64,000 nucleotides of DNA. It comes from Deltaproteobacteria bacterium (GTDB taxonomy: Bacteria; Myxococcota_A; Polyangia; Polyangiales; JADJMO01). Below the pieces are notes generated by a model. It searched no databases and had not been told where the DNA came from. It worked only from the letters and a program-made list of their open reading frames with translations. Below, piece by piece: positions 293-56,211 of the stretch (position 1 is the stretch's first letter; every line of letters starts with the position of its first letter). The DNA lies in contig JALHOE010000001.1 in the NCBI GenBank assembly GCA_022843175.1, forward strand, positions 70,988 to 134,987, given 5' to 3'. The position numbers and the translations under genes are program-made.

Positions 293-2368
293 ATGGTTCC
301 CACTGTAAGGTTCCGCGTAACGATCGCGATCCTCGCGCTGAGCGGTGGACTCATGCGCACCGCAGCCGCCCACGAGCAGCCCCCGAGCGGCCCGACACCA
401 CCGCAGAAGCCCGCGGAGATCGTCGTGTCCGGCGACAAGGGCTACACCGCTGCCTCCGCCGACGAGGTTCGACACCGCGATCTGTCTCTTCGTCCCCGCG
501 TTCGTCCGGGCGACATCCTCTCGGTAGTGCCGGGATTGTTCGCCGTGCAGCACGCCGGGGGCGGCAAAGCGAACCAGTATTTCCTCCGCGGCTTCGACGC
601 GGACCACGGCACCGACATCGCGCTCTTCGTCGACGGCGTTCCGATCAACCTTCCGTCGCACGGTCACGGTCAGGGTTGGCTCGACATCCATTTCCTGATC
701 CCGGAGCTCGTCACGACGCTCTCGTCGAGCAAGGGGCCGTACCTGGCCCGGTACGGAGACTTTGCGACGGCCGGGGCCATCGACATCCGGCTGAGCGATC
801 ACATCCACGAGTCGAGCGTGCTCGTTCAGGGAGGAAGCTTCGGGTCCGCCCGTACGGTGTTCATGACTGCGCCGGAGCTCGGCGACGATTGGTCGACGAT
901 CGTCGCAGGCGAAGCGTCGACGTCGAACGGGCCGTTCCGCAATCCGGAACGTTTCCGCAAGCTCAACGTCTTCGGACGAGCGACGCGCCACCTCGGGCCC
1001 GGCGCGCTGTCGCTCACATGGATGTCGTACAGCGGCGGGTGGAACGCGTCGGGTCAGGTGCCGCTCCGCGCGATCGGCAAGGTGCCGGAGCTCCCCGACG
1101 AGTTCGGTACGATGGACCCGACGGAGGGAGGCAGCACGCAGCGGCATCAGTTGAGTGCGTCGTACGCGTATCGCCGCGGCGATGACGACACTCGCGCGGT
1201 CATCTACGCGACCCGTTACAACTTCGCGCTGTTCTCGAACTTCACGTTCTTCGCGCGCGACCCGGAGAACGGCGATCAGATCGCGCAGACCGATGGACGA
1301 ACCGTCGCCGGCGCCCATTGGTTCTACCGCCGCACGCGAGCCCTCGGCGGGTTGAAGCTCGCGAGCACCGTCGGCTTCCAAGCGCGCCACGACGCGATCC
1401 AGAACACACTCCACGAGACGCGAGCGCGCAAGAGCCTCGGCACCTCTGTCGACGCCGGCGTGTCGCAAACATCGATCGGCCTCTATGCCGAGGAGGACGC
1501 GACACTCCTTCCCTGGCTTCGCGTCATCGCGGGCCTCCGTGTGGATCGCTTCGATGTGTCGGTGCGCGACCGTCTCGAGCGCACGGATGGCGCGCAGACT
1601 TCCGGAATCGAGGGCGCCACGCTCGCCTCGCCGAAGCTCAGCGTGGTGCTGTCGCCCGCGCCGTTCATCAACATGTTTCTCAACTACGGCCGCGGCTTCC
1701 ACAGCAACGACGCGCGTGGTGCCGTGCGCCGTCTCGATCCGTCGTCGCCAGCGGTGACGCTCCTCGCTGTCGCAGACGGCTACGAAGCCGGCACGCGTCT
1801 CCGCCTGCTCGATCGTCTGGACATCGCCGCTGCCGTCTTCCGGCTCGACCTCCAGAGCGAGACCGTGTGGGTCGGCGACGAGGGAACGACCGAGGCCCGC
1901 GGTCCCACGCGGCGCATCGGTGCGGAGCTCGAGGCACGCGTGAAGCTCGCCAACTGGATCTTCGCCGACGCGGACGCGACGTTCACGAAGGCGACCTTCG
2001 TACAGAACGCGGGGAACGCCAACGCTGTCGCACTGGCACCGACGCGAACGTTCTCTGGCGGGATCGGCTTCAAGCATCCGCGCGGAACGTTCGGCAGCTT
2101 GCGTGTGCGATCGATCGCTGCGAGGCCGGCGACGGAGGATCGCGCGCTCGTCGCCGATGGCTGGACGGTGTTCGACGCCTCGCTCGGCCATCGTTTCGGT
2201 TGGCTCGAAGTCGCTGCGGACGTTCGGAACGTGCTGAACACGCGGTGGCGAGAGGTGCAGTTCGCGAACGAGTCGCGGCTCCGAACCGAGAGCGCCCCGG
2301 TCCGCGACATTCACTTCACGCCGGGCTGGCCGTTCACCGCTCTGGTGCGAGCCACAGCGTACTGGTGA
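293..2368 (+). CDS. TonB-dependent outer-membrane receptor
   Basis: 691-aa ORF. Signal peptide (AILALSGGLMRTAAAHE). Plug-type motifs (ILSVVPGLFAVQHAGGGKANQYFLRGFDADHGTD). Long beta-barrel region ending in aromatic ...ATAYW. Family call by motif recall only. Confidence 0.85.
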   Translation: MVPTVRFRVTIAILALSGGLMRTAAAHEQPPSGPTPPQKPAEIVVSGDKGYTAASADEVRHRDLSLRPRVRPGDILSVVPGLFAVQHAGGGKANQYFLRGFDADHGTDIALFVDGVPINLPSHGHGQGWLDIHFLIPELVTTLSSSKGPYLARYGDFATAGAIDIRLSDHIHESSVLVQGGSFGSARTVFMTAPELGDDWSTIVAGEASTSNGPFRNPERFRKLNVFGRATRHLGPGALSLTWMSYSGGWNASGQVPLRAIGKVPELPDEFGTMDPTEGGSTQRHQLSASYAYRRGDDDTRAVIYATRYNFALFSNFTFFARDPENGDQIAQTDGRTVAGAHWFYRRTRALGGLKLASTVGFQARHDAIQNTLHETRARKSLGTSVDAGVSQTSIGLYAEEDATLLPWLRVIAGLRVDRFDVSVRDRLERTDGAQTSGIEGATLASPKLSVVLSPAPFINMFLNYGRGFHSNDARGAVRRLDPSSPAVTLLAVADGYEAGTRLRLLDRLDIAAAVFRLDLQSETVWVGDEGTTEARGPTRRIGAELEARVKLANWIFADADATFTKATFVQNAGNANAVALAPTRTFSGGIGFKHPRGTFGSLRVRSIAARPATEDRALVADGWTVFDASLGHRFGWLEVAADVRNVLNTRWREVQFANESRLRTESAPVRDIHFTPGWPFTALVRATAYW

Positions 2369-2381
2369 CCGAGCCGGTCAC
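2365..2381. promoter_or_regulatory. GTGAC-N7-GTCAC dyad (copy 2)
   Basis: perfect gtgaccgagccggtcac; overlaps only the TGA stop of the TonB receptor gene; about 210 bp upstream of the micropeptide genes. Confidence 0.6.
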
Positions 2382-2589
2382 ATAGGTCTCCTGGCAGTCG
2401 CTCTGCCGGCCACTCGCACGCGGATCGTTCCGGGGTGCAGCGCACGCATTCGCTGCGATATCCGAACTGTGGTCGGCGCGGTCACGGTGCAACGTTGAGG
2501 TCAGCGCGCGGGCACTCGCCTTGCAGAAGCACGCGACGCCGCGGCACGAGGTCGCGGCGCTGTTAGACTCGTGACCTGGAGGTGCGCAC

Positions 2590-2667
2590 ATGAAGATTCG
2601 TATCCGCATTCGTCAGACCAACTGCAAGTTCTGCGGCGGAGCCTGCGGGTTCTTCTGCAACTGCTGA
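2590..2667 (+). CDS. unannotated 25-aa Cys-rich micropeptide (MKIRIRIRQTNCKFCGGACGFFCNC)
   Basis: ATG preceded by GGAGG 7 nt upstream. Five Cys in the last 14 residues. GC-rich third positions in the Cys-rich half. Below the 60-aa cutoff of the ORF track. Confidence 0.5.
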   Translation: MKIRIRIRQTNCKFCGGACGFFCNC

Positions 2668-2682
2668 TCGGAAGCCATCCCC

Positions 2683-2835
2683 GTGAAAGCTCTCCGTACG
2701 ACGAAGATCAAGAACGTGAAGGTTCGTCCTGCAGCCAAGACGCGCCTGCGTCACTGCGGCGATCCTCCGACGATGCGTCACTGCGGTGATCCGCCGATGC
2801 TTCGGCATTGCGGCGATCCGCCCGCTCGTCGCTGA
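2683..2835 (+). CDS. unannotated 50-aa peptide with three HCGDPP repeats (MKALRTTKIKNVKVRPAAKTRLRHCGDPPTMRHCGDPPMLRHCGDPPARR)
   Basis: GTG start fixed by an in-frame TGA five codons upstream and by alignment to the paralog at 47903-48052 (shared MK.LR....NVKV leader and HCGDPP repeats). Followed by a strong hairpin terminator. Confidence 0.6.
   Translation: MKALRTTKIKNVKVRPAAKTRLRHCGDPPTMRHCGDPPMLRHCGDPPARR
2749..2823 (+). repeat. 27-nt tandem repeat (about 2.8 copies) encoding R-H-C-G-D-P-P-x-x
   Basis: cgtcactgcggcgatcctccgacgatg / cgtcactgcggtgatccgccgatgctt / cggcattgcggcgatccgccc read directly. Confidence 0.8.
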
Positions 2836-2849
2836 CAAGCGGCCCTTGC

Positions 2850-2885
2850 ACGATGCCCCCGCACCGAAAGGAACGGGGGCATCGT
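2850..2885. terminator. bidirectional hairpin terminator between convergent genes
   Basis: perfect 11-bp stem acgatgccccc / gggggcatcgt with a 14-nt loop, followed by cttcttc; lies between the peptide gene (+) and the 2891-4759 gene (-). Confidence 0.6.
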
Positions 2886-2890
2886 CTTCT

Positions 2891-4759
2891 TCAGCGTCGT
2901 CGTCGCAGTGCGAGCGCGGTCACGACGGCCAACCACCCGAGCGATGGACCGAACTTCGTCGCTCCGGCGCCCATGCTGCAACCGCCACCATCGCTGCCGA
3001 CGTCGCCGTTCGGTCCCTGTGTCGCGCCGGGACTCCCGCCGCCGGAACCAGCGTCGCCGCCGGGCCCGGCCTCGGTGAACGTGCCGCCGTCCTTCTCGAC
3101 GGGATCCGGTTCTTCCTCCATCCCTGCGTCGAACAGACCACCATCCGGGGGTGCGGAGGGAGGCGGCGGCACCGTGGGGCCCGACCATCGTGTGAGCGCG
3201 TTGCGGATCATCGTCTCGTAGCGCGCGTCCTGGCTTCCCGCGAATCCGCCGCCCTTCGCGGCCCAGTCATCGAGCGCCCACGCCGTGAAGATCGCGCCCA
3301 TCGAAACGACCTCTGCGCCGGCCGGTGTACGGTAGAAGGCCGCCGAACCCTTGATCTTGCCGTCGGAGACTTGCTTGATCGCGCCAAGGACGCGCTGGCC
3401 AGGTGGCCGGAACTTGTCGAACTCGGGGCTGCTCGCGAGCGTAGAGTCGACTTCGTAACCGAAGACGTTGGCGATCTTGTCTCCGGCCTTCAGCCCAGTG
3501 CCGTCGTACAACCAGAACGTCGGATCGGTGACGATGAGATCCGCCCACGGGTAGAGACCGCCGTGCATCGGGTTGCCCGATGCATCGCGGATGATTCCTG
3601 CAGACTGCACGCCGGTGAGAAGCATGCCCGGACGACGCTCGTCGATCCCTGCTGCGGGATCGTACTCGAGGTTCTTCCACCCGCGCGTCACGAGGCGGTA
3701 CTTCGCCTTCGCCTCCTCGATCTTGCCAGCCGCTTTCAGCGAGTACGCTTCTTTCTGCATCGGGTCGCGCACCCAGCTCTCCTTGTACCCAACGATCGTG
3801 CTGCGCGGTCCGCCGGGACCCGCCTCGAAGCGCACCTGCCACGACCACGTGTCGCCCGAGAGGAAGAGGAAGTTCGCGCCGGCGTCGCGCGCACCCAGCG
3901 CGTTGTCATACATCGGCCGGCTTGTGTACTCCTCGTGTCCCGAGAACGTGATCACCTTGCGCCCCTTCGCGATCTCCGGATCGCGATCGAGGTCTTCATC
4001 GGTGCAATACGCGACCTCGTAGCCGTTCTTCTCGAGCCAGCGGATGAACGGGTACTCGTAGCCGCCGACGTCGGCGATACCGCCCCCAACGAGGAAGGGA
4101 CGATCGAGCGAGACCTTCACGGCCTGCGTCAACGTTCCGATCGATTCGCTCGGGTGCGCAGGGCTCGAGTTGAATCCGTAAAGGCTCTTGCCGCCGCGCT
4201 CCGGTCCCGGCCACGCGTTGTACACGGCGTGCGTCGCCAGTCCGACGACCAGGAGGATCGGCTGCTTCGCGGGCATCCCGTCGTCGCGCACGGTGAAGAA
4301 CGTGAGAGCCTGCTTGCCGCTCGCAGCCTCGACGCGCGCCACGTACAGGCCCGTGGTCCACGTCGAATCGGTCGGGACCGAGACCGAGTCCGGCCAACGC
4401 GCTTCCGCGATTCCGAACTTCTCGTCGGCCGCAGGGTAGCTCCGAGGCGACGCCGGTTGCGCGGTGATGACCTTCATCTCGCGCGCGCCGGTCCCGCCGT
4501 ACCACCCGAGTCGGAAGATCCGAACGTCGTATCCCGTCGTCGAATGGACCTTCAGCTTGACCGTATCGCCGCGTGCGATCGACCACTGCGCGGGGTAGAC
4601 GTCGACGACGCCGCCAAAGCGGGCCGTCCCATCGTTCACCACCGTCCAGCTTCCAGCGATGCCGCTCTTGCCGTTCTCTTCCGACACGACTCCGGCGTGC
4701 GCCACCGCGGATGAAGCGAGGGACGCGAGCACGAAGACCGAACCAACGACACGACGCAT
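2891..4759 (-). CDS. secreted N,N-dimethylformamidase beta-subunit-like (DUF6605-like) protein with a MYXO-CTERM sorting tag
   Basis: 622-aa ORF. Signal peptide (VFVLASLASSAVAHA). GAGGAGG Shine-Dalgarno before the ATG. Body resembles DMF-ase-like family by recall (RLGWYGG..., GLATHAVYNAW). C-terminus GGGCSMGAGATKFGPSLGWLAVVTALALRRRR is a Gly/Cys motif, a hydrophobic helix and an Arg cluster. Confidence 0.65.
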   Translation of the reverse strand: MRRVVGSVFVLASLASSAVAHAGVVSEENGKSGIAGSWTVVNDGTARFGGVVDVYPAQWSIARGDTVKLKVHSTTGYDVRIFRLGWYGGTGAREMKVITAQPASPRSYPAADEKFGIAEARWPDSVSVPTDSTWTTGLYVARVEAASGKQALTFFTVRDDGMPAKQPILLVVGLATHAVYNAWPGPERGGKSLYGFNSSPAHPSESIGTLTQAVKVSLDRPFLVGGGIADVGGYEYPFIRWLEKNGYEVAYCTDEDLDRDPEIAKGRKVITFSGHEEYTSRPMYDNALGARDAGANFLFLSGDTWSWQVRFEAGPGGPRSTIVGYKESWVRDPMQKEAYSLKAAGKIEEAKAKYRLVTRGWKNLEYDPAAGIDERRPGMLLTGVQSAGIIRDASGNPMHGGLYPWADLIVTDPTFWLYDGTGLKAGDKIANVFGYEVDSTLASSPEFDKFRPPGQRVLGAIKQVSDGKIKGSAAFYRTPAGAEVVSMGAIFTAWALDDWAAKGGGFAGSQDARYETMIRNALTRWSGPTVPPPPSAPPDGGLFDAGMEEEPDPVEKDGGTFTEAGPGGDAGSGGGSPGATQGPNGDVGSDGGGCSMGAGATKFGPSLGWLAVVTALALRRRR

Positions 4760-40789: not shown

Positions 40790-41739
40790 TTCGCGGCGGC
40801 GCTCGTCGCGGAGAACGAACTGCTTCGGCTGCAGCTCGCGGTCGCGAAGCGGCGGCTCGAGGGGAAGCGGGTGCGCGCGTTCCCAACGCAGCGGTGGACC
40901 GTTGGGGTCCTGTCGCGGTTCACGTCGACGTGGCGGTCCGCGGTGACGTTGTTCGAGCCGGCGACCGTGCTGCGATGGCATCGCGAAGGGTTCAGGGTGT
41001 TCTGGCGATGGCGTTCGAGGAGGTCGGCGACCGAGGTCGCATGCGGCGACGATGCGCGACATGACCGCGAAGAACCCGAGGTGGGGCGCGGAGCGGATCC
41101 GCGGCGAGCTGCTCAAGCTTGGCATCCGTGTCTCGAAGCGCACGATCCAGCGGTACATGCAGGTGGCGCGCAAGCCGGGTGACGGACAGCGTTGGCGAAC
41201 GTTCATCAAGAACCATGCGACGTGGGCCTGCGATTTCATGCAGACGTTCGATGCGCTGTTCAGGCCGATCTTCATCCTGTTCTGCATCGACCTGAAGCGA
41301 CGCCGGATCGTGCACGCAGCGGTCACGTACCACCTAACGGACGACTGGTGCGCGCAGCAGGCGCGCAACGTGATGATGGACGGGCAGCCCGAGGTGTTGA
41401 TCGTCGATCGCCACAGCAAGCTCGGCGGGAAGTCCGCGACCATGTTCAAGGCCGTCGGCGTGCGCGTCGTGCGCACTGTGATCCGCGCACCCCTCATGAA
41501 TGCGTTCGCGGAGCGGTTCGTCGGCACGCTCCGACGCGAGCTGCTCGATCACGTCCTGATCCTCGGCGATGAACATCTCGCGCGGCTCGTTCGCGAGTAC
41601 GTCCCGTTCTACAACGAGGGGCGACCGCATCAGGCGCTCGATCAACAGCAGCCTGTGCCGCGAGCGCCGGAGACGACCGGCGGGATCGTTTCCCTGCCGT
41701 CCTCGGGGGTCTTCATACGACTACCGCCGAGTGGCATGA
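40790..41739 (+). mobile_element. frameshifted IS transposase (rve/integrase-core type), decayed
   Basis: N-terminus ENELLRLQLAVAKRR...VLRWHREGFRVFWRWRS in one frame. Core MTAKNPRWGAERIRGELLKLG...DRHSKLGG...FYNEGRPHQALD in a second frame. Tail VLGGLH / YDYRRVA* in two further frames. This gives at least three frameshifts. Confidence 0.75.
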
Positions 41740-42236
41740 CGCGCCCCTACGACGCGCGCGGCGAAAGTAGCCATCACACGTGCGCCGGCGACGGCGTTCG
41801 TCCAGAATTGGAGGAGCCTCGGTTCCTGTCGCACTGGCGGCCATCATCATCGCGTGCGGCGCCAGCGGCGATCACACCGCGACGACGCCGCGACCTACGA
41901 CAAGGAAATCGCGTTCCGCGATCTCGAGGTCGTCGGGTTCCTTGATCGGAACGCGGACGAGAATTGTCGCCGGAGGAATACGGGCCGTTCCGCGTGAGTG
42001 ATGTCGTCGCTGGGTCCCCCGACTATCCACTTGTGCACGTCGCGTTTCGGGTGTTGCGAGTGGTGCTGGGGGGAAGCGAAGGAGCAGATTCGCTGGTTAC
42101 GCGGCTACGGCGGTCGGCTGCGCGTGCTTCGGGTGTACGTCGATGACCTGCGCGGCCAGCGCGCGGACCGCGCGGACGTCGTCGGCCAGGATCGTCCATG
42201 TGTACGCCCGAACCTTCACCTGGATCGCGCCTCGGC

Positions 42237-42346: not shown

Positions 42347-42757
42347 ATGAACCACCTGGAAATGCTGAAGACCCACCCGCGGAAGACGATGGTCGATCCG
42401 AAGGTCCTGTCGGACTGCATCGAGGAGTGCCTCGCTTGCGTCGACGCCTGCAACAGCTGCGCGGACGCTTGCCTCGGCGAGCAGCAGATCGACATGCTCC
42501 GGCGGTGCATTCGACTCAACCTCGACTGCGCTGACGCGTGCCAGTCCGCGGCGCGCATGCTCGCGCGGCAGACCGAGCCCGCTTGGCTGCTGATCCGTGC
42601 GCAGGTCCAGGCGATGGAGCTCGCATGTCGCCTGTGCGCCGAGGAGTGCGAGAAGCACGCGAAGAAGCACGAGCACTGCCGGATCTGCGCGGAGGCGTGT
42701 CGCCGCTGCGAGGCCGCGTGTCGTCGGATCATGTCGCTGTTGCCGGCGCAGGCCTGA
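42347..42757 (+). CDS. four-helix-bundle Cys-rich copper-binding protein (DUF326/Csp3-like), copy 1
   Basis: 136 aa with 19 Cys in repeated C-x-x-x-C / C-x-x-C helical spacing (CIEECLACVDACNSCADAC...CRICAEACRRCEAAC). Confidence 0.85.
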   Translation: MNHLEMLKTHPRKTMVDPKVLSDCIEECLACVDACNSCADACLGEQQIDMLRRCIRLNLDCADACQSAARMLARQTEPAWLLIRAQVQAMELACRLCAEECEKHAKKHEHCRICAEACRRCEAACRRIMSLLPAQA

Positions 42758-42770
42758 GCCACGACAAACG

Positions 42771-44615
42771 ATGCGCCGCATCGCGGTCGAACGCACCATT
42801 GGCGACTACGCGGCGATCGGTGACACGCACACGGTCGCGCTGATCGGTCGCGATGGGTCGATCGACTGGTGTTGTCTCCCCCGGTTCGACTCGGCCGCGG
42901 TCTTCCTCCGCCTCCTGGATGAAGATCGCGGCGGGTCGTTCCGCGTCGCGCCCGTCGAAGCAAGCGACGCACGAAGGGAGTACGTCACCGGTACGAACGT
43001 CCTCGACACGACGTTCTCCTCACCGCGCGGTCTCGTTCGGCTGCGCGACTGGATGCCGTGGCACGGAGCGCACCTCCTCGGCGAGGAGCGGCACGCGATC
43101 GTCCGCGACATCAGCGGTGTCTCCGGCACCTGCAATGTCGAGATCACGTTTCGTCCGACGTTCGACTTCGCACGCCGCAACGCGATCATCGAGCGCTTCG
43201 ACGACGGTGTCGTTGCGATCGAAGGATCTGGCGCGCTCGCGCTCTTTGCCCCGGGGGTGGCGTTCACTGCGCTGGGCGATCGGGCGCGAGGAGCGCTCGA
43301 CGTGCGGCCGGGATCCAGTCAGCGGGTCGTCGCCGCGTTCGCATTGCGCGCGGAGGAAGCGACCGCCGTCGCGCGAGCTGTCTACGAGGAGTCGATCGAC
43401 GACACCATCGCGACGTGGCGCGCCTGGTCCGGCCGGTGTGCGTACGACGGGCCTTACCGCGATGCCGTGCTGCGAAGCGCACTCACGCTGAAGCTCATGA
43501 CGTTCGGCCCGAGCGGCGCGCTCGTCGCGGCGCCCACGACGTCGCTGCCCGAAGCGCGCGGCGGCGTGCGGAACTGGGACTATCGATATGCATGGTTGCG
43601 CGACGCCTCCATCGCGCTGCATTCCTTGATGGCACTCGGGTATCACGACGAGGCGCTGCGGTTCTGGGACTGGCTCGAGATCCTCGGCGAGGGTTGGGAA
43701 TGCGGGATGCCGGTTCGGATCATGTACACGCTCGATGGTGAGGTCGTACCCACCGAGTCAACGCTCGATCACCTCGCAGGATTTGGTGGCGCGCGGCCGG
43801 TGCGCATCGGGAACAACGCGTCCGAGCAGCTCCAGCTGGATGTCCTCGGAGAGGTTCTTCACGCCGCGGACACCTGCCACGCGGCGCTCGGATGGGAGCG
43901 GCCGCGTTTGCTCCGCGCGCTCGCTTGTCTCGCCGAGATGGCGGCGAACGAGTGGCGCAGGCCCGATGCCGGTATCTGGGAAATGCGAACCGCGCCCGCG
44001 CACCATGTGAACTCGAAGTTGTTCTGCTGGGTCGCGCTCGATCGCGCGCTTCTCTTGTCGCGCCGCGCTGGGCTGCACGGCGATACGGCGAAGTGGCAGC
44101 GCGAGGCCGATGCGATCCGCGACGCGATCCTGAGCGATGGATTCTCGCCGGCGCTCGGGTCGTTCACGCAGACGTTGGGCGGAAGCGCCATCGACGCGAG
44201 CGCCTTGCGCATACCGCTATTGCATCTGCTTCCACCCACGGACCCACGGGTCGTGTCGACGGTCGAGCGCATCGAGCGCGATCTGACCCGCGGGGGCCTC
44301 GTGCTCAGGTACCGCGCCGACGACGGCCTGCCGGGTGACGAAGGAACGTTCGCGTTGTGCACCCTCTGGCTCGCGAACGTCCTCGCGCGCATCGGGCAGC
44401 CCGAGCGCGCCCGTGCGTACCTCGATCGGGTGCTCGCGGCAGCCAACGACGTCCGTCTGCTATCGGAGGAAATCGACGCCGACTCCAGTGAGCTCCTGGG
44501 CAACTTCCCGCAGGCGTTCACGCACCTCGGTGTGATCGACGCAGCGCTTGCGATCGCGAAGGCGGAACGAACGCGCGCGGGAGGCGCTGCCTTTCAACCG
44601 ACGCGATCGAGGTAG
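42771..44615 (+). CDS. glycoside hydrolase family 15 (glucoamylase/trehalase-like), copy 1
   Basis: IGDYAAIGDTHTVALIGRDGSIDWCCLPRFDS N-terminus; VRNWDYRYAWLRDAS, LSEEID...LGNFPQAFTHLGVI motifs. Confidence 0.85.
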   Translation: MRRIAVERTIGDYAAIGDTHTVALIGRDGSIDWCCLPRFDSAAVFLRLLDEDRGGSFRVAPVEASDARREYVTGTNVLDTTFSSPRGLVRLRDWMPWHGAHLLGEERHAIVRDISGVSGTCNVEITFRPTFDFARRNAIIERFDDGVVAIEGSGALALFAPGVAFTALGDRARGALDVRPGSSQRVVAAFALRAEEATAVARAVYEESIDDTIATWRAWSGRCAYDGPYRDAVLRSALTLKLMTFGPSGALVAAPTTSLPEARGGVRNWDYRYAWLRDASIALHSLMALGYHDEALRFWDWLEILGEGWECGMPVRIMYTLDGEVVPTESTLDHLAGFGGARPVRIGNNASEQLQLDVLGEVLHAADTCHAALGWERPRLLRALACLAEMAANEWRRPDAGIWEMRTAPAHHVNSKLFCWVALDRALLLSRRAGLHGDTAKWQREADAIRDAILSDGFSPALGSFTQTLGGSAIDASALRIPLLHLLPPTDPRVVSTVERIERDLTRGGLVLRYRADDGLPGDEGTFALCTLWLANVLARIGQPERARAYLDRVLAAANDVRLLSEEIDADSSELLGNFPQAFTHLGVIDAALAIAKAERTRAGGAAFQPTRSR

Positions 44616-45045: not shown

Positions 45046-45140
45046 CTCCGGTCACGCGGGAACTCGCGTCACGCGAGCGCGCCGATAGGTGACGCGACCG
45101 CCGTCCCGTTCGGTGGCGCGCTCGTTGCTGCTTGGGTGGT

Positions 45141-46259
45141 ATGGACACAACGAAGACCGCCCGGGTTCTGGCCGTGATTGTAGGACTCGCGCTCGGGGGA
45201 TGCGGCAGCGACGACGCACCGAACACGACGCCCGTGACGGAGGTGTCGAACAATCCTCCGCCGTCGGCGCTCGGTGACAAGCGCGTGCCCTTCACGCCCG
45301 CAAACGACGTCGAGTTCATCGACTTCTTCGTTGGACACCACCGCGCCGCCATCGAGATGGCGCAGATGGTGGTCGCGAAGGGCGAACGCGCTGACGTGGG
45401 TGAAATGGCCCAGAGAATGATTGCCGCGCAGACCGCCGAGCTCGAGAAGATGCGTGCCGCGCGATCGGCGCTGACGGGCACAGCCGAATCGCAACCGCTC
45501 CCGCCGGATCAGCACATGATGGCGGACATGGAGCACATGAAGACGATGAGCGGCAGCATGCTCGATGAGATGTTCCTCGCGGAGATGATCGGTCACCACG
45601 CGGCCGGTATCGCGCCAGCGAAGCGCGCGATACCGAACCTTGCGCGCGATGACATGAGGACGCTCGCCCGGAGCATCGCCGCCAATCAGGCGAAGGAAGT
45701 CGGTGAGATGAACGAGATGCGGACGACGAGGCCCGAAGAACCGAAGGCAGGAGGCGAGGTGTCGCTCGATGGGGATCGGCGGGTGCCGCTCACACCGGGG
45801 AGCGACGTCGTATTCATCGACTTCTTCGTCCCGCATCACATGATGGCCGTCCAGATGGCGCAAATGGTGGTCGAACGAGGTCGCAGCGAGCGCGTGCGCG
45901 CCATCGCGAGGAACATCGTCGACAACCAGACTCGCGAGATTGCGACGATGAAGGAAGCGCGACTTGCGCTGACCGGCTCCGATGCGATCAGCATGCCGAC
46001 CGACGCTCAGATGGAGGCCGACATGCAAAGGATGATGGCCGCCAGCGCCGAGGCTCTCGACGCGATGTTCATCACCGAGATGATTCCGCATCACGCCGCC
46101 GGACTGTCGCCTGCGATGCGCGCGACGCCCTACCTCGCGCGCGACGACATGCGGAAGATGTCGAACGACATCTTCGAGGCGCAAGCGAAGGAGATCGGCG
46201 AGTTGTCATCCATCGCGAAGACGGAGGGCATCAGCGAGCTCCAGCCGACGACGCCGTGA
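45141..46259 (+). CDS. tandem DUF305 (ferritin-like, copper-resistance-associated) lipoprotein
   Basis: lipobox ALGGC; two repeats of FIDFFV.HH..A..MAQMVV...EMI.HHAAG. Confidence 0.8.
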   Translation: MDTTKTARVLAVIVGLALGGCGSDDAPNTTPVTEVSNNPPPSALGDKRVPFTPANDVEFIDFFVGHHRAAIEMAQMVVAKGERADVGEMAQRMIAAQTAELEKMRAARSALTGTAESQPLPPDQHMMADMEHMKTMSGSMLDEMFLAEMIGHHAAGIAPAKRAIPNLARDDMRTLARSIAANQAKEVGEMNEMRTTRPEEPKAGGEVSLDGDRRVPLTPGSDVVFIDFFVPHHMMAVQMAQMVVERGRSERVRAIARNIVDNQTREIATMKEARLALTGSDAISMPTDAQMEADMQRMMAASAEALDAMFITEMIPHHAAGLSPAMRATPYLARDDMRKMSNDIFEAQAKEIGELSSIAKTEGISELQPTTP

Positions 46260-46411: not shown

Positions 46412-46453
46412 TCAACCGACGCGATCGAGATAGCGTCCGATGTTGTCGGCCGC
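46412..46453. repeat. 42-nt direct repeat, copy B (authentic 3' end of the GMC gene)
   Basis: tcaaccgacgcgatcgagatagcgtccgatgttgtcggccgc. Confidence 0.85.
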
Positions 46454-47773
46454 GCGCAGCGCGTGGGCGAGCACCGTCAGCGTGGGGTGTCGATCTCCGG
46501 CGGTCGGCATCACCGACGCGTCGGCGATCCAGACGTTCTCGAGCGCGCGCAGTCGTCCGAAGGGATCGCACACCGAACTCTCATCAAGTCCCATCGCACA
46601 GGTGCCCGCCTCGTGCCCCGCGCCCGGCTGCAGCGGATCGAGGAAGGGGATGAGCTTGCTGCCGGGAATGGCGATCGCGTCGGCGAGCGCTACGCACGCA
46701 CGGCGCATGTCCGCCGCCATCCGTCGTTCAGCGGCGGACCACGCGAGGTGGATCCGCGGGACTCGGCGGCCGAGCGCGTCACGCTCGTTCGGATCGAGAT
46801 CGACGTACCGCTTCGCGTGCGGAAACATCTCGCCTATCGCGTGGATCTGCGTGGCCGACCATCGGTCCTCCTCGCCACCCGGCACCATCCGTTCGACACC
46901 GAGCGGCGCGAGTGGCAACGGTCCGGTGACTTCGATCGAAACGCCGCCGGGATATGACTCCCGGTCGCCGGGGCCCGTGTTGACCAGACCGTGCGCGAGG
47001 ACCGATCCCGGGAACGGTCCTCGCGCGGCCGTCGCCGAGGGCACGGGGGACGGTTCGAGCAGCAACCAGCTCGCGACCATGTGATCGACGAGCCCATGAC
47101 CGATGCGTCGCGCGCCGACGTCGCTGCTCAGCAGAATGCGTGCCGTCTCGACGGGCGAGGCGGCAAGCACGAAGGCACGCGCGCGAAGCTCTTCGCGGGT
47201 CTCGCGCATGAGGTTCAGCACGGAGAGCGCTTGGGCACGCTTGGCGGTGTGCTCGAGGTGGAGTGCAGCGCGGTAGCAGCGCGCCTTTCGCGCGACCTCG
47301 TGGGCGAGCGGGGTCCACAGGCGGCGACTGCCCGTGCCCGCACGAAGCGCGCCGCGCTTCGCCGCGAACCGGATCGCGAGTGTGCGCGCCACCCGACGAT
47401 AGCGTTCGTCGATCTGTCCCTCGACGACACCCAGCGTGCGTTCGACCGCTGCGTAGTGCGGGGCGAGGGCCGACGCGCCGTAGGGCCACTTCCCGCGGCG
47501 GAAGACCACGTCGGGAAACCGGTACGACCATCCGCCCCAGAGAAGCGCTCGACCGCCCACGGCGCGGACGCGATACCAATCGAACGAGCTGCCCACGGCG
47601 CGATACGCCCAAGCGCGTCGATCGACTTCCGGGGTCCGCTCGCCGTCGCGCAGCCGTGGCCCCGCATCCAACAAGAGAACGCGATAGCCCCGCGAGATAA
47701 GTCGGTCGGCAGCGATCGTCCCCGCGGGACCGGCGCCGACAACGACGACGTCCCACGCGGTCACTGGAGGCAC
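46412..47773 (-). CDS. GMC-family FAD-dependent oxidoreductase
   Basis: VVVVGAGPAGTIAA Rossmann motif; C-terminal GAGHEAGTCAMG...NVWIADASVMPT.G..HPTLT. Confidence 0.8.
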   Translation of the reverse strand: MPPVTAWDVVVVGAGPAGTIAADRLISRGYRVLLLDAGPRLRDGERTPEVDRRAWAYRAVGSSFDWYRVRAVGGRALLWGGWSYRFPDVVFRRGKWPYGASALAPHYAAVERTLGVVEGQIDERYRRVARTLAIRFAAKRGALRAGTGSRRLWTPLAHEVARKARCYRAALHLEHTAKRAQALSVLNLMRETREELRARAFVLAASPVETARILLSSDVGARRIGHGLVDHMVASWLLLEPSPVPSATAARGPFPGSVLAHGLVNTGPGDRESYPGGVSIEVTGPLPLAPLGVERMVPGGEEDRWSATQIHAIGEMFPHAKRYVDLDPNERDALGRRVPRIHLAWSAAERRMAADMRRACVALADAIAIPGSKLIPFLDPLQPGAGHEAGTCAMGLDESSVCDPFGRLRALENVWIADASVMPTAGDRHPTLTVLAHALRAADNIGRYLDRVG

Positions 47774-47902
47774 CTTGGTCTCGAGGAGTGCATGACTTTG
47801 CTCACGACGGGTCGTCGTTCACGAGGAGTGGGCATCGCGTTTGCTCTCGTTCGCGCGACGGCAGTTCGTAGTGAACCGCCGCATCCGAGAAACGAGGCAC
47901 GC

Positions 47903-48052
47903 ATGAAGAATCTTCGTCCCATCGAATTGCAGAACGTCAAGGTCACCCGACGTTCCGCGAAGGTGCGGGATAGCCATTGCGGCGATCCCCCGGCGGCCCG
48001 CCATTGCGGCGATCCGCCTTCTCATAGCGGCGCAGCGACCGAACGTCGCTAG
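47903..48052 (+). CDS. unannotated 49-aa HCGDPP-repeat peptide (MKNLRPIELQNVKVTRRSAKVRDSHCGDPPAARHCGDPPSHSGAATERR)
   Basis: ATG with GAGG upstream; paralog of 2683-2835; two intact repeats plus one degenerate (HSGAAT); followed by a hairpin and a T-rich run. Confidence 0.6.
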   Translation: MKNLRPIELQNVKVTRRSAKVRDSHCGDPPAARHCGDPPSHSGAATERR

Positions 48053-48113: not shown

Positions 48114-48130
48114 TGTGACCGGCGAGGTCA
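48114..48130. promoter_or_regulatory. GTGAC-N7-GTCAC dyad (copy 13)
   Basis: perfect gtgaccggcgaggtcac; the only copy with no obvious gene start within about 200 bp. Confidence 0.5.
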
Positions 48131-48244
48131 CGTGCGCCAATTCACGGAGAGCGCGCGGCGGCGCGTCAATATCGTGGCAGTCGACCTGATCAACTTGGGC
48201 AGTCCGCATCCAACCGATGCGAGGCGAGTTTGTGTCTGCAACGG

Positions 48245-50725: not shown

Positions 50726-51136
50726 TCACGCCTGCGCCGGCAACGACGACATGAGTCGCGTGCACGCCGCCTCGCAGCGCCGGCAGGCCTCCGCGCAGAT
50801 TCGGCAGTGCTCGTGCTGCTTGCCGTGCTTCTCGCACTCCTCGGCGCAGAGGCGGCACGCGAGCTCCATCGCCTGAACCTGCGCGCGGAGCAGCGCCCAC
50901 GACGGCTCGGTCTGCCGCGCGAGCATCCGCGCTGCGGCCTGACACGCATCGGCGCAATCGAGGTTCGTGCGGATGCAGCGCCGCAGCATGTCGATCTGCT
51001 GCTCGCCGAGGCAGGCGTCCGCGCAGCTGTTGCAGGCGTCGAGGCAGGCGAGACACTCCTCGATGCAGTCCGAGAGGACCTTCGGATCGATCGTGGTATT
51101 GCGCGGGTGGGTCTTGAGCATGTCGAGGTGGTTCAT
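50726..51136 (-). CDS. four-helix-bundle Cys-rich copper-binding protein (DUF326/Csp3-like), copy 2
   Basis: 136 aa; roughly 85-90% identical by eye to copy 1; its stop lies 1 nt before the next ATG. Confidence 0.85.
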   Translation of the reverse strand: MNHLDMLKTHPRNTTIDPKVLSDCIEECLACLDACNSCADACLGEQQIDMLRRCIRTNLDCADACQAAARMLARQTEPSWALLRAQVQAMELACRLCAEECEKHGKQHEHCRICAEACRRCEAACTRLMSSLPAQA

Positions 51137-52841: not shown

Positions 52842-54638
52842 TCAGCGCGCAGCAGTCGCTTCGGCGATCGCGAGCGCTGCGTCGATGACACCGAGATGCG
52901 TGAACGCTTGGGGGAAGTTCCCGAGGAGCTCGCCGGTCGCAGCGTCGATCTCCTCCGAGAGAAGACCAACGTCGTTGGCCGCAGAGAGCACTCGGTCGAG
53001 ATATCCGCGGGCGTCTTCGACGTCCGCCATGCGCGCGCGGACGTTCGCCATCCACAGGCTGCAGAGCGCGAACGTCGCTTCCGTTCCCGGCAGGGCGTCG
53101 ACGGTGCGGTACCTCAGCACCAATCCCGATCGGGTGAGGTCGTGCTCGATCCGAGCGATGGTCGATTGAACGCGCGGGTCGGTCACCGGCAATAGTCGCG
53201 TCAGCGGGATCCGAAGCGCGCTCGCATCAAGAGCGCTTCCGCCGAGGGTCTGCGTGAACGCACCGACCTCGCGAGAGTATCCCTTCTCGACGATGACGGC
53301 GCGGATCGTATCGGCCTCATGTTGCCATCGTGCGGTGTCGGCGCGTAGGCCGGTTGCGCGCGCGAGACGAACGCCACGATCGAGAGCGACCCAGCAAAGC
53401 AACTTCGAGTTCAGGTGATGTGCCGGAGGGCCGCGCATCTCCCACAAACCCGCGTCGGGTTTGCGCCAGTTGTCGGCGGCGTAGTCGACGAGGTGTCCGA
53501 GCGCGCGGAGCAGCTGCGGTCGATCCCACCCCATCGCGCAGTAGCATGTGTGCGCCGCGTGCAGAACCTCACCGACGATGTCGAGCTGAATCTGCTCGTG
53601 CGCGTCGTTGCCGATTCGAACCGGTCGCGAGTCGGCGAAGCCGCGCAGGTGCTCCAGCGTCGTCTCGCACGGCACCGCCGTGCCGTCGAGCGTGTACATG
53701 ATCCGGATCGGCGCGCCGCGCTCCCACTCGTGGCCGAGTCGCTCAATCCAGTTGAAGAAGCGAAGCGACTCGTCGTGGTAGCCGAGTCCCATCAGCGCGT
53801 AGACGGCGAGCGAGGCGTCACGGAGCCACGCATATCGGTAGTCCCAGTTGCGGACGCCGCCGAGATCCTCCGGCAGCGACGTCGTCGGCGCGGCAACCAA
53901 CGCGCCAGTCGGCGCGAATGTCAGCATCTTGAGCGTCAACGCGCTGCGCAGCACGGCCGCGCGGTAGGGGCCGTCGTAGCAGCATCGATTCGACCAGCTT
54001 CGCCAAGCGTCGATCGTTGCGTCGACAGGTTCGCCGTAGATGGCGCGTGCTGCGGCGATCGCTTCCTCCGGACGGTCCCCGAATCCGGCGACGAAACGCC
54101 GCTGGTCGCCGGCTCGAAGCTCGGCGGTGCCTCGCACGCCACTGTGCCCGACCGTCAGCGATAGGTCGGGAGCGAACAGGGCGAGCGCGGAATCCGACGT
54201 GTGCGCGACGACGCCGCGGTCAAATCGATCGAAGCGCGCGGCAGCCCGTGCGTAATCGAACGTCGGGTCGAAGACGACCTCCGCGCTGCATCGCCCCGAG
54301 ACGACATGAATGTCGCGCACGATCGCACGGGCAGCTGTGCTTTCGTCACTGCCGCGCCATGGCATCCAGTCGCGTAGCGTCGTGACGCCGCCGTCGGTCG
54401 AGAAGGTCGTCTCGAGCACGTTCGTTCCCGCGAGGTACTCCCGCGCGACGGCGCCGCCGTTCGCGGGTCGGACCGAGAAGGCTCCGCCCCTATCGTCGTC
54501 GAGCAGCCGCACGAACACCGCTGGGGCGTCGAACCGCGGCAGGCACCACCACTCGATGGAACCGTCCCGGGCGATCAGCGCGATCGTGTGGGTATCGCCG
54601 ACGACCGCGTAATCGCCGATGGAGCGCCGTGCCGACAT
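52842..54638 (-). CDS. glycoside hydrolase family 15, copy 2
   Basis: ATG 54638 (MSARRSIGDYAVVGDTHTIALIARDGSIEWWCLPRFDA); same motifs as copy 1. Confidence 0.85.
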   Translation of the reverse strand: MSARRSIGDYAVVGDTHTIALIARDGSIEWWCLPRFDAPAVFVRLLDDDRGGAFSVRPANGGAVAREYLAGTNVLETTFSTDGGVTTLRDWMPWRGSDESTAARAIVRDIHVVSGRCSAEVVFDPTFDYARAAARFDRFDRGVVAHTSDSALALFAPDLSLTVGHSGVRGTAELRAGDQRRFVAGFGDRPEEAIAAARAIYGEPVDATIDAWRSWSNRCCYDGPYRAAVLRSALTLKMLTFAPTGALVAAPTTSLPEDLGGVRNWDYRYAWLRDASLAVYALMGLGYHDESLRFFNWIERLGHEWERGAPIRIMYTLDGTAVPCETTLEHLRGFADSRPVRIGNDAHEQIQLDIVGEVLHAAHTCYCAMGWDRPQLLRALGHLVDYAADNWRKPDAGLWEMRGPPAHHLNSKLLCWVALDRGVRLARATGLRADTARWQHEADTIRAVIVEKGYSREVGAFTQTLGGSALDASALRIPLTRLLPVTDPRVQSTIARIEHDLTRSGLVLRYRTVDALPGTEATFALCSLWMANVRARMADVEDARGYLDRVLSAANDVGLLSEEIDAATGELLGNFPQAFTHLGVIDAALAIAEATAAR

Positions 54639-54699
54639 TTCAGTTCGTGCGGACGTTGCAAGTGCGGCGCCCACGTGGATCGCACGGTACGGCGATCGC

Positions 54700-56211
54700 A
54701 TGGAACGCCACGAGGCGCCCATGAACCACTCCGATTCTCAGCACGACGGCATGATGGGGCAGAACGCTGGCATGATGGGACGCGGTGCGACGCGGCCGAT
54801 GATGCCCGGCGACAGCGACGTGGATCGCGGCAAGATGCTCGAGAAGCATCACACCAAGACCCTCTGGGTCTGGTGGACCGTCATCCTCCTCGGCGTCTGG
54901 GTACTCGTGGCGCCGCTGACATTCGGATACGGCACGGGCGTCGTCGACGCGAGCGGCGGCCGTGAGCTCTGGCTGACCACGACGGCGCGCATCGCGGCCA
55001 TGAAGTGGAGCGACATCGTCACCGGCGCGCTCATCGCGTTCTTCGGCTGGCGATCGCTCACGCCGAACCGTCCCGTCAGCATGTGGATCTGTTGCTTCCT
55101 CGGATGCTGGCTCACGTTCGCGCCGGTCCTGTTCTGGGCGCCCACGGCCGCGGCGTACATGAACGACACCATCGTCGGGATGCTGGTCATTTCGCTCACG
55201 ATCCTCGTTCCCGGCATGCCGAACATGGTCGCGTTCATGAAGATGGGCGGCGACGTCCCGCGGGGTTGGTCGTACAACCCGTCGTCGTGGGCGCAGCGCT
55301 CGATCATGATCGCGCTCGCGTTCGTGGGCTTCGTGGTCTCGCGGTATCTCGCCGCCTACCAGCTCGGCTACATCGACCACGTGTGGGATCCGTTCTTCGG
55401 CGGCGGCAGCCGCCGCGTGCTCGACTCAGCGATGTCACACAGCCTGCCCGTGTCGGACGCGGCCCTCGGTGCGCTCGCCTATACGTTCGAGTTTCTCATG
55501 GGCTTCATGGGCGCGACGTCGCGGTGGCGAACGATGCCGTGGATGGTGACGTTCTTCGGGATCCTCGTCCTGCCGCTCGGGCTCGTGCACATCTTCCTCG
55601 TGATCTCGCAGCCGGTGATCGTTGGGTCGTGGTGCACGCTCTGTCTCGTCGCCGCGGCGATCATGCTTCCGATGTTGCCGCTCGAGGCCGACGAGGTCGT
55701 CGCGATGGGGCAGCACATGGTCGAGTCGAAGCGCAAGGGACACCGACTTTGGTCCGTGTTCTGGAAGGGCGGTCCGGCCGGTGACGCGTTGGACGACGAA
55801 CGTTCCCCGAAGCTCATGGCGCTGCCGAAGGAGCCGCGCGCGGTCGTCAACGCCGCGACGTGGGGGATGAGTGTGCCGTGGACGCTCGTCGCGGCGACGC
55901 TGCTCGGGGTGGCGCTCACGTTCACTCCGACGTTCTTCGGGCTCGCGAAGGCGGCGTCCGACGCGCCGCACCTGCTCGGCCTGCTCACCGTGACGTTCGC
56001 CGTCATTGCGATGGGTGAGCCGCTGCGCCCGCTGCGGTTTCTCAACGTCCTATTGGGACTCGCGGCCGCGGTCGCGCCCTGGGTCTTCGGACACGCGCCG
56101 CTGGGCGCGAAGGTCATGCAGGTCGCACTCGGCGTCGCGATCGTTGTGCTGTCGCTCCCGCGTGGACCGAAGAAGGAGCAGTACGGGCTCTGGGACCGCT
56201 TCGTCGTATGA
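54700..56211 (+). CDS. vitamin K epoxide reductase (VKOR)-family membrane protein with a Met/His-rich N-terminus
   Basis: MNHSDSQHDGMMGQNAGMMGRGATRPMMPG tail; multiple TM helices; VKOR-type GSWCTLCLVAAAIM motif. Confidence 0.7.
   Translation: MERHEAPMNHSDSQHDGMMGQNAGMMGRGATRPMMPGDSDVDRGKMLEKHHTKTLWVWWTVILLGVWVLVAPLTFGYGTGVVDASGGRELWLTTTARIAAMKWSDIVTGALIAFFGWRSLTPNRPVSMWICCFLGCWLTFAPVLFWAPTAAAYMNDTIVGMLVISLTILVPGMPNMVAFMKMGGDVPRGWSYNPSSWAQRSIMIALAFVGFVVSRYLAAYQLGYIDHVWDPFFGGGSRRVLDSAMSHSLPVSDAALGALAYTFEFLMGFMGATSRWRTMPWMVTFFGILVLPLGLVHIFLVISQPVIVGSWCTLCLVAAAIMLPMLPLEADEVVAMGQHMVESKRKGHRLWSVFWKGGPAGDALDDERSPKLMALPKEPRAVVNAATWGMSVPWTLVAATLLGVALTFTPTFFGLAKAASDAPHLLGLLTVTFAVIAMGEPLRPLRFLNVLLGLAAAVAPWVFGHAPLGAKVMQVALGVAIVVLSLPRGPKKEQYGLWDRFVV

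Follow-up and report, generated by a model that had tools for sequence, protein, structure and literature searches.

The 64-kb stretch of DNA analysed here (the window), from a probable myxobacterial genome, carries near its start a pair of adjacent open reading frames (ORFs) for very small peptides, ORF-A and ORF-B (Table 1). Both are present as the preliminary description of this DNA had them: a 25-codon frame behind a GGAGG Shine-Dalgarno sequence, seen directly in the letters, and, 15 nt after its stop codon, a 50-codon frame built of a 27-nt tandem repeat. ORF-A begins with ATG and its product, MKIRIRIRQTNCKFCGGACGFFCNC, contains five Cys. ORF-B begins with GTG, at the position where its orthologues have ATG, and encodes MKALRTTKIKNVKVRPAAKTRLRHCGDPPTMRHCGDPPMLRHCGDPPARR, in which a leader (MKALRTTKIKNVKV...) is followed by three R-H-C-G-D-P-P units (repeat part ...RHCGDPPTMRHCGDPPMLRHCGDPPARR). 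The three HCGDPP copies of ORF-B differ from each other at synonymous sites only. A paralogue of B, also noted previously, lies in the second half of the window and encodes two RHCGDPP units and a degenerate third (MKNLRPIELQNVKVTRRSAKVRDSHCGDPPAARHCGDPPSHSGAATERR); the B-family profile described below gives 97 bits for ORF-B and 85 bits for the paralogue. The window contains five occurrences of the HCGDPP-coding pattern, of which three fall in ORF-B and two in the paralogue; the expectation is 1.04, and none of 100 shuffles reached five.

ORF-A and ORF-B are real coding genes, and in related contigs purifying selection acts on both. Within their first 20 codons, A of the window and A of a related locus (L001; related loci are numbered with an L throughout) differ by eight synonymous and two non-synonymous codons. 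For pairs of B-family genes the ratio of non-synonymous to synonymous differences (pN/pS) is 0.18-0.73, being 0.53 or lower in seven of eight pairs, and purifying selection covers the entire leader. This is the synonymous-site pattern that the preliminary description had proposed to look for in relatives. The Shine-Dalgarno sequence of A is also kept (GGAGG in L001, AGGAGG in L066). Rfam matched no RNA element in the A-B region, and a known RNA element is thus ruled out as its identity. Read-through of the stop codon from A into B is ruled out as well, because the two frames, which coincide in the window and in L066, are out of register in L001. By direct reading, both peptides are short, carry many charged residues and lack a hydrophobic segment at the N-terminus, and a count of residues gives a net charge of about +10, making them extremely basic.

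Ten relatives of B (P0001, P0003-7 and P0020-23) were recovered by an exhaustive profile search of 1.84 billion representatives and then a second indexed search that used the family alignment as query. Long, high-scoring profile matches (P0002, P0008-P0019) were low-complexity repeat proteins and were discarded. The B family comprises about 13 distinct sequences of 41-55 residues, including the two window genes and a second copy in L001 that surfaced in our own ORF scan. The sequences come from metagenomes or metagenome-assembled genomes (MAGs) only, one of them being an NCBI 'hypothetical protein' of 'Deltaproteobacteria bacterium'; named relatives of the flavoprotein gene that neighbours B (see below) belong to Polyangiaceae, Polyangia and Myxococcota. 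Only one relative came from a word-indexed protein search in which B was the sole query. A pattern scan for two CGDPP units in 185,579 species genomes, a collection without the source genome, returned 62 loci, none with the leader, and a pattern scan of metagenomes for B returned one chance match, inside an FAD-oxidoreductase gene. Several of the 62 CGDPP loci are short repeated elements reading GGCGDPPR in Planctomycetota and Anaerolineales MAGs. This (R)GGCGDPPR element is found in L006, L010, L011, L022, L025, L033, L034, L040, L055, L057, L060 and L064, at many unrelated positions, and looks like a repetitive extragenic palindromic (REP)-type repeat that is unrelated to the A-B pair.

The B-family leader is conserved as MKxLxxxKxKN[VIL]K[VIL], and the core consists of one to four R-H-C-G units that vary in copy number and in flanking residues (in L001, B reads MKTLRSRKPKNVKV...RHCGDPPMLRHCGDPPARR). 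In the first unit H24, C25 and G26 are invariant, and the residue before the Cys is His in every unit. The D-P-P that follows in the window is replaced in relatives by DST, NPP, APP, QPP or QIT. The conserved unit of B as read from the alignment is thus R-H-C-G and not HCGDPP. As D-P-P is not conserved, the suggestion of EF-P-dependent ribosome stalling at this motif loses its basis. More generally, B might act in cis as a leader peptide, with metal modulating ribosome stalling at D-P-P or His-Cys codons. An x-P-P does follow most HCG units, and in L075 and L082 B precedes the flavoprotein gene in the same orientation, as it does a 147-aa gene and a multicopper oxidase gene in L077. This explanation is nevertheless very improbable: selection acts on the whole leader, a strong hairpin and a convergent gene come after B in the window, and in most loci the neighbour of B is divergent or convergent, or B comes last after a transporter gene.

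A has a family of its own, with the pattern MK[IL]RIRIR(IR)xTxC[KQ]FCGGxCG...CxC. Orthologues of A lie directly upstream of B in L001/L002 (in L001, MKIRIRIRETQCKFCGGACGESGCGCRR) and in L066, which holds the third A-B pair. All five Cys are kept across the three A sequences, and F-C-G and A-C-G are among their contexts. The 25-28-residue peptide is not among the called genes of L001, L002 or L066, and A-like ORFs were found nowhere outside these loci and the window. Neither A nor B was matched by a Pfam or NCBIfam model (for A, none at E <= 1 to 10), in agreement with the earlier remark that no HCGDPP-repeat family had been described. A and B are not previously named genes, and the RHCG family is new to Pfam and NCBIfam. 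The layout of a leader and a Cys core in small coding genes is upheld by the family alignment.

The search for relatives of leader and core, with tabulation of their neighbours, had been suggested as a check, and it revealed a recurrent neighbour. Genes of one subfamily of GMC flavoproteins, of about 430-470 residues, adjoin B-type peptide genes in eight loci: beside the paralogue in the window (window-2), L001, L068, L072, L075, L077, L080 and L082. The GMC proteins of the B loci are 51-89% identical to that of the window (73% in L001, where CusA is 88% identical to the window CusA). The arrangement varies. The GMC gene is divergent from B, in a GMC(-)/B(+) layout, in window-2, L068-70, L077-79 and at the second B-type gene of L001 (L001-B', MKNLRSVRPKNVTVRRRTARVRGRHCGDTSIARHCGDVAVRHCGDANAPR); it lies beyond an MFS gene in L072 and L080, and directly 3' of the peptide gene on the same strand in L075 and L082. 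In L001 the orthologue of the window GMC gene abuts the A-B pair, to which it is convergent, and it is thus flanked by B-type genes on both sides. Little weight is given to L071, L074 and L076, which end too near B, and to L066 (3.4 kb) and L067 (1.5 kb), which are short and contain no GMC gene.

A second neighbour is an MFS transporter gene, found directly upstream of B or of A-B in L001, L066, L072 and L080; these genes are mutual orthologues with 46-59% identity. Thus, the conserved module, judged from gene order, is MFS, optional A, B and GMC. A conserved leader, a variable core and co-localised GMC and MFS genes are what is expected of the precursor of a ribosomally synthesised and post-translationally modified peptide (RiPP), and the RiPP reading of the preliminary description has in these features gained substantial independent support. 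Its methanobactin, stalling and TonB parts have not.

The gene upstream of A-B in the window does encode a TonB-dependent receptor, as its Pfam domains confirm, but this receptor adjoins the peptides in the window only. It has only generic siderophore, heme and B12 receptor matches in NCBIfam, and its best PDB match is BtuB (1e-6). A TonB-dependent receptor and an exporter are likewise encoded in methanobactin clusters, and A, with its short basic N-terminus, its Cys-rich C-terminus and the receptor gene upstream, had been likened to a methanobactin precursor (MbnA), with the receptor as the counterpart of MbnT. A precursor of this type is hardly credible: A has no match to a model, neither an MbnB (DUF692/MNIO) nor an MbnC gene was found in the window or in any related locus, and the receptor is not kept beside A in L001 and L066, the dedicated MFS gene being found upstream there as in L072 and L080.

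Two more distant loci bear on the association of peptide and GMC genes. In L082, a module on one strand consists of an S8 protease gene, a promoter element, an uncalled 33-aa peptide gene and a GMC gene, with no copper genes. The peptide, MKLLQKVRLKNIKVMTALNKSLKVRHCQIRCCK (MKLLQKVRLKNIKV...KVRHCQIRCCK), has a B-type leader and a different Cys core. It is preceded by a perfect sigma-54 element, TGGCACAGGTCTTGCT (TGGCAC-N5-TTGCT), with a GGAGG ribosome-binding site after it, and the GMC gene, whose product is 51% identical to that of the window, starts 79 nt after the peptide ORF. A pattern derived from the other B members matched only the family and the L082 peptide in 1.26 million residues of six-frame ORFs, which included 62 unrelated GC-rich loci. 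The L082 peptide is therefore regarded as a probable member of the B family. In L085, a 53-aa precursor-like gene (MNAKKPEATKSDLDRGLAVKKENLKQLTVKTGLRGGLAALKAGCCSGCHCSMA, ending ...KAGCCSGCHCSMA, GCCSGCHCSMA) lies upstream of a gene for a full LanB dehydratase, and a gene for a GMC protein with 46% identity to that of the window overlaps the end of the LanB gene by 4 nt. This locus is a candidate for a novel RiPP cluster. B itself does not resemble a class I lanthipeptide precursor: the window encodes no Lant_dehydr domain, the only LanB gene is that of the distant L085, and B cores have few or no Ser and Thr.

The GMC protein of the window, for which a look-up by exact sequence found no record, was modelled with a mean predicted local distance difference test score (pLDDT) of 90.6. 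Its nearest folds are fructose dehydrogenase and the alpha subunit of FAD-glucose dehydrogenase (TM-score 0.77-0.80), and the large subunits of the same two enzymes are also its nearest solved relatives by sequence. The first residues form the FAD-binding fold, and there is thus no signal peptide. H387, H429 and H231 are invariant in 36 GMC homologues; the first two are taken as the catalytic pair by their position in the GMC C-terminal motifs. With its FAD fold, invariant His pair and cytoplasmic location, the enzyme looks active and is a candidate peptide-modifying enzyme. The earlier statement that the window has no MNIO, radical-SAM or YcaO gene was borne out. Its corollary, that either the maturation genes would lie elsewhere or the peptides would act unmodified, needs correction in its first part, as a candidate maturase is encoded within the window.

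Instead, B might serve the GMC dehydrogenase as a small accessory subunit, or as one for electron transfer, with its Cys and His as ligands of a metal or Fe-S centre that the short GMC subfamily lacks. Both fructose dehydrogenase and FAD-glucose dehydrogenase consist of several subunits, including small partners, and their large subunits are about 90 residues longer than the window enzyme; the B and GMC genes are tightly adjacent; and the Cys-rich motif of TheO (see below) is missing from the window enzyme. A subunit would, however, hardly vary between one and four repeats or be encoded twice for a single GMC gene, as in L001, where the copies flank it, and in the window. Nor would it account for the co-conserved MFS gene, for the GMC relative coupled to LanB, or for the window A-B pair, a separate transcription unit with a terminator, some 44 kb away from the GMC gene. 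This alternative is very unlikely.

The closest known system to B and its GMC neighbour is of the ThaO/TheO type. ThaO and TheO are GMC-family oxidoreductases reported in 2026 as RiPP maturases of Acidobacteriota; they convert a Cys that neighbours Gly (GGCG) into a thiazole, with a loss of 20 Da, and TheO acts without a lanthionine synthetase, its reaction being impaired by change of either Cys-adjacent Gly (Wiederkehr, Paoli, Richter et al., Nature; PMC13083261). The thiazole is likely to arise when the thiol is oxidised to a thioaldehyde that then undergoes cyclocondensation (PMC13638132). As with ThaA/ThaO and TheA/TheO, B would be a small Cys-core precursor encoded beside a GMC FAD oxidoreductase in a system with no YcaO, and the Gly at +1 of the Cys, required in TheA, is invariant in B. 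The coupling of a GMC relative to a lanthipeptide dehydratase in L085 recalls the pairing of ThaO with ThaM. The B system differs in having no TheB-like small subunit, in its target context (R-H-C-G one to four times, as opposed to the single G-G-C-G of TheA), and in its setting in a Myxococcota copper island with a sigma-54-type promoter. TheO presumably falls in the same broad branch as the window enzyme, to judge from its Cys-rich motif and from the FAD-glucose dehydrogenase alpha subunit. Over the first 400 or so residues of TheO and ThaO, to which the comparison was confined, the window enzyme appears only distantly related.

A sigma-54-type -24/-12 element, GGGCACTCGCCTTGCA, lies 80 nt upstream of the ATG of A and agrees with the consensus at 10 of 12 positions, with the GG and GC fixed. 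Upstream of the paralogue is another, GGGCATCGCGTTTGCT, which is the best-conserved block in an alignment of three orthologous B' upstream regions (window, L068 and L001). Equivalent elements precede the first peptide codon by 67-91 nt in window-2, L068, L001-B', L066, L071 and L082. The number of sigma-54-like motifs in the window is not above that in shuffled sequence; it is therefore conservation, across seven loci, that makes the case for a sigma-54 promoter. No sigma-70-like promoter was found in 2200-3000. Genes for sigma-54 activators (response regulators) and kinases stand beside B in L071 and L077, and no activator gene is present in the window.

Between B and the convergent gene downstream lies a hairpin of -29.3 kcal/mol (z = -3.66; none of 200 shuffles was as stable). 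The terminator described earlier is thus present as a strong hairpin, with a stem of 12 rather than 11 bp and a tail (CUUCUUC, four U in seven) that is moderately U-rich, and a consensus terminator scan made no call there.

The window also contains 13 copies of a 17-nt palindrome, GTGAC-N7-GTCAC, mostly GTGACC-N5-GGTCAC, against 0.21 expected (starts at 90, 2365, 4868, 4966, 5966, 8041, 10475, 15911, 17807, 19994, 42237, 45039 and 48115). In our own mapping, all 13 are intergenic or at a gene boundary. The palindrome also occurs in L001, L066, L068-71 and L077, and in window-2, L066, L068, L071 and L001-B' a copy is found some 60-90 nt after the end of B. The palindrome is probably the operator of a regulator or a REP-like element, and the copy at 2365 is possibly linked to the peptides as an operator. 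A role as an enhancer site for sigma-54 promoters was dropped, because sigma-54-like motifs are not enriched nearby.

Table 1. Coordinates of the peptide genes, their neighbours and associated elements in the window and in three related loci.
Feature	Locus	Position	Strand	Remarks
Shine-Dalgarno sequence of ORF-A	window	2578-2582	+	GGAGG
ORF-A	window	2590-2667	+	25 aa
ORF-B	window	2683-2835	+	50 aa
27-nt repeat in ORF-B	window	2747-2822		2.8 copies (Tandem Repeats Finder)
B paralogue (window-2)	window	47903-48052	+	49 aa
Sigma-54-type element	window	2510-2525	+	upstream of A
Sigma-54-type element	window	47830-47845	+	upstream of B paralogue
Terminator hairpin	window	2850-2885	+	12-bp stem, then CUUCUUC
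Palindrome GTGACCGAGCCGGTCAC	window	2365-2381		one of 13 sites
Palindrome GTGACCGGCGAGGTCAC	window	48115-48131		63 nt downstream of B paralogue
GMC-family FAD oxidoreductase	window	46412-47773	-	453 aa, cytoplasmic; Pfam GMC_oxred_C/N and NAD_binding_8; adjoins B paralogue
TonB-dependent receptor	window	293-2368	+	Pfam Plug and TonB_dep_Rec_b-barrel; upstream of A
Convergent gene 3' of B	window	2891-4759	-	DMFA2_C-domain protein, sub-threshold MYXO-CTERM match
Integrase-core (rve_3) insertion-sequence gene	window	41052-41945
Csp-type DUF326 gene	window	42347-42757	+	136 aa
Glycoside hydrolase family 15 gene	window	42597-44615		start overlapped by first Csp gene
Sigma-54-like element TGGCGCGCTCGTTGCT	window	45114-45129		just upstream of DUF305 gene
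DUF305 gene	window	45132-46259
Csp-type DUF326 gene	window	50726-51136	-	136 aa
Glycoside hydrolase family 15 gene	window	52842-54722
Second B-type gene (L001-B')	L001	11642-11794		uncalled; divergent from GMC gene
S8 protease-peptide-GMC module	L082	2933-7365		all on one strand
Sigma-54 element	L082	5730-5745
Peptide gene	L082	5821-5922		uncalled, 33 aa
Precursor-like gene, LanB, GMC	L085	2066-7353

The surroundings of the peptide genes are dominated by metal homeostasis. The metal island of the window comprises two multicopper oxidases, a CDF transporter, an RND system, CusCBA, two Csp paralogues and DUF305, together with thioredoxin-like lipoproteins, a di-haem peroxidase and extracytoplasmic function (ECF) sigma factors. 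The RHCG clade is embedded in copper-homeostasis islands with multicopper oxidases, CusCBA, Csp, DUF305 and CorSR-like sigma-54 regulators, for which reason the product would most likely be, on genomic context, a copper-chelating or copper-buffering peptide. In L077, B is followed by a 147-aa gene, a multicopper oxidase gene and then a regulator and a kinase, and in L071 the order is kinase, regulator, B. This gene content resembles that of the copper-induced curA operon of Myxococcus xanthus, which includes a multicopper oxidase, a DUF305 lipoprotein and a sigma-54-dependent response regulator and promoters, under the control of CorSR (PMC3707914). The description of curA (PMC3707914), unlike the loci studied here, includes no small Cys-peptide gene or GMC oxidoreductase, and the window, unlike curA, has no sigma-54 activator.

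Some details of the island were noted in passing. The two Csp-type genes, for Cys-rich four-helix-bundle proteins, are 89% identical and in opposite orientation. The first of them overlaps the start of a family 15 glycoside hydrolase gene, and there is a second family 15 gene further on; the Csp/family-15 part of the island looks duplicated and rearranged. The insertion-sequence gene separates the two halves of the metal island and may be related to the rearrangements relative to L001 and L068. A sigma-54-like element precedes the DUF305 gene, with a copy of the palindrome 75 nt further upstream; in M. xanthus, the DUF305 lipoprotein gene belongs to the sigma-54-controlled curA operon (PMC3707914).

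The copper context is also explained by the main rival to a modified peptide, in which A and B are unmodified Cu(I)-binding micro-proteins akin to metallothioneins or MymT. Such proteins would be co-induced with the copper regulon and would hold cytoplasmic Cu(I) through Cys and His, and the GMC and MFS genes would be co-regulated neighbours. A has its five Cys in the last 14 residues, with CxC and CxxC spacing, and B has two to four pairs of adjacent His and Cys. The peptide genes stand among genes for multicopper oxidases, CusCBA, Csp, DUF305 and CDF/RND efflux, and they have sigma-54-type promoters and, nearby, regulators like the CorSR system that controls M. xanthus copper genes (PMC3707914). 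No Pfam or NCBIfam metallothionein model matches, and the Cys/His content is compatible with one.

There is also a precedent in Mycobacterium tuberculosis, where MymT and socAB, described by Gold et al. in 2008 and Festa et al. in 2011, are reportedly small copper-induced ORFs of the RicR regulon. Like A and B, these are very small Cys/His-rich or paired ORFs in a copper-responsive regulon that routine annotation missed. They differ in having no link to a flavoenzyme or transporter, MymT acts unmodified, and no sequence relationship of A or B to MymT or socAB was found. An unmodified ligand does not account for one GMC and one MFS subfamily that track the peptide through inversions and rearrangements, for the peptide-GMC pair of L082 in a locus without copper genes, or for the coupling of a GMC relative to LanB. 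It would also be unusual for a metallothionein to have a strongly conserved basic leader before a core of variable number, or a net charge of about +10, since bacterial metallothioneins are not known to be extremely basic. Unmodified micro-proteins are accordingly a possible explanation, and a somewhat improbable one.

Modified copper-binding peptides of other kinds are also known. Bufferins are copper-chelating RiPPs that are modified by an MNIO/DUF692 enzyme with a partner protein and whose precursors have Sec signal peptides (PMC11626156). Both bufferins and methanobactins are ribosomal peptides encoded with copper-stress genes, as B is, and in both, Cys is converted to copper-binding heterocycles. 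The B system, unlike these, has a flavoprotein, no MNIO/DUF692 enzyme with its partner, and no precursor signal peptide; an MNIO enzyme with a DUF2063 partner was absent from the window and the related loci. Literature searches found nothing that joins Myxococcus, copper and GMC, or chalkophore and MFS.

With these alternatives in mind, we give about an even chance to A and B being the precursors from which a GMC-dependent modified peptide is made, with expression driven by a sigma-54-type promoter within a copper island. B and its paralogue, and probably also A, would be the precursors, and a dedicated cytoplasmic GMC flavoprotein would be the tailoring enzyme. Under such a scheme, a sigma-54-type promoter would produce a short A-B transcript ending at the hairpin, and the basic, strand-like leader (in A, KIRIRIR) would dock the peptide on the GMC enzyme. 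The flavin would then oxidise the Cys of each R-H-C-G, and by analogy with ThaO/TheO the thiol would pass through a thioaldehyde and cyclise onto the preceding carbonyl to form a thiazole, giving imidazole-thiazole ligand pairs. The co-conserved MFS transporter would export the product. The coding status of the genes, the family, the conservation of leader and core, the gene module, and the promoter-like and terminator elements are observed; the action of the GMC enzyme on the peptide, its chemistry, the export and the copper function are what we infer from them.

Several observations weigh against a GMC-modified peptide. It is gene neighbourhood that links enzyme and peptide, and in a copper island even unmodified His-Cys repeats could be metal ligands. 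The A-B pair of the window, with the GMC gene about 44 kb away, is the sole real exception to GMC adjacency; upstream of it there is a TonB receptor instead of an MFS gene, and the MFS genes of the window are not of the B-associated kind, so that the dedicated transporter is absent from the window. No RRE leader-binding domain was identified in the B neighbourhoods, and a gene for a leader protease was found only in that of L082 (S8). The L082 peptide is not significant by profile hidden Markov model (E = 0.028 and 7.4), and the B family is so far confined to one lineage and to its 13 or so sequences. The parallel with TheO also has its limits. The Gly at -1 of the Cys that TheA needs is His in B; the window enzyme, at about 450 aa, belongs to another subfamily without the Cys-rich motif of TheO (CVYCDACAGYGC) and in BLASTP against the first 399 residues of TheO has 30% identity over 140 N-terminal residues (E = 1e-9); and the leader of B is a short basic MKxLxxxKxKNVKV, unlike the NHLP-type leaders of ThaA and TheA, which end in GG.

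More tentatively, the system may represent a new class of Myxococcota RiPPs: copper-induced, sigma-54-controlled precursors with tandem RHCG units, which an enzyme of a hitherto uncharacterised GMC clade would convert without YcaO to imidazole-thiazole, or related oxidised-Cys, copper ligands, with export by the MFS transporter and, in some genomes, re-uptake by a TonB receptor. The product would be a flavoenzyme-made chalkophore or copper buffer, and A would be a second co-transcribed substrate. We consider this full proposal possible rather than probable.

Myxococcota copper islands carry conserved micro-genes that are often missed or left unnamed by gene callers. The system described here is very compact: besides the peptide, with its 41-55 residues, it has a single enzyme and a single transporter. 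If the GMC protein does modify the peptides, the recently discovered GMC route to peptide heterocycles would also be open to a second enzyme clade, remote from the first, with another leader and a His-Cys-Gly target, and bacteria would have a third chemically independent route to copper-binding ribosomal peptides, beside those of methanobactins and bufferins.

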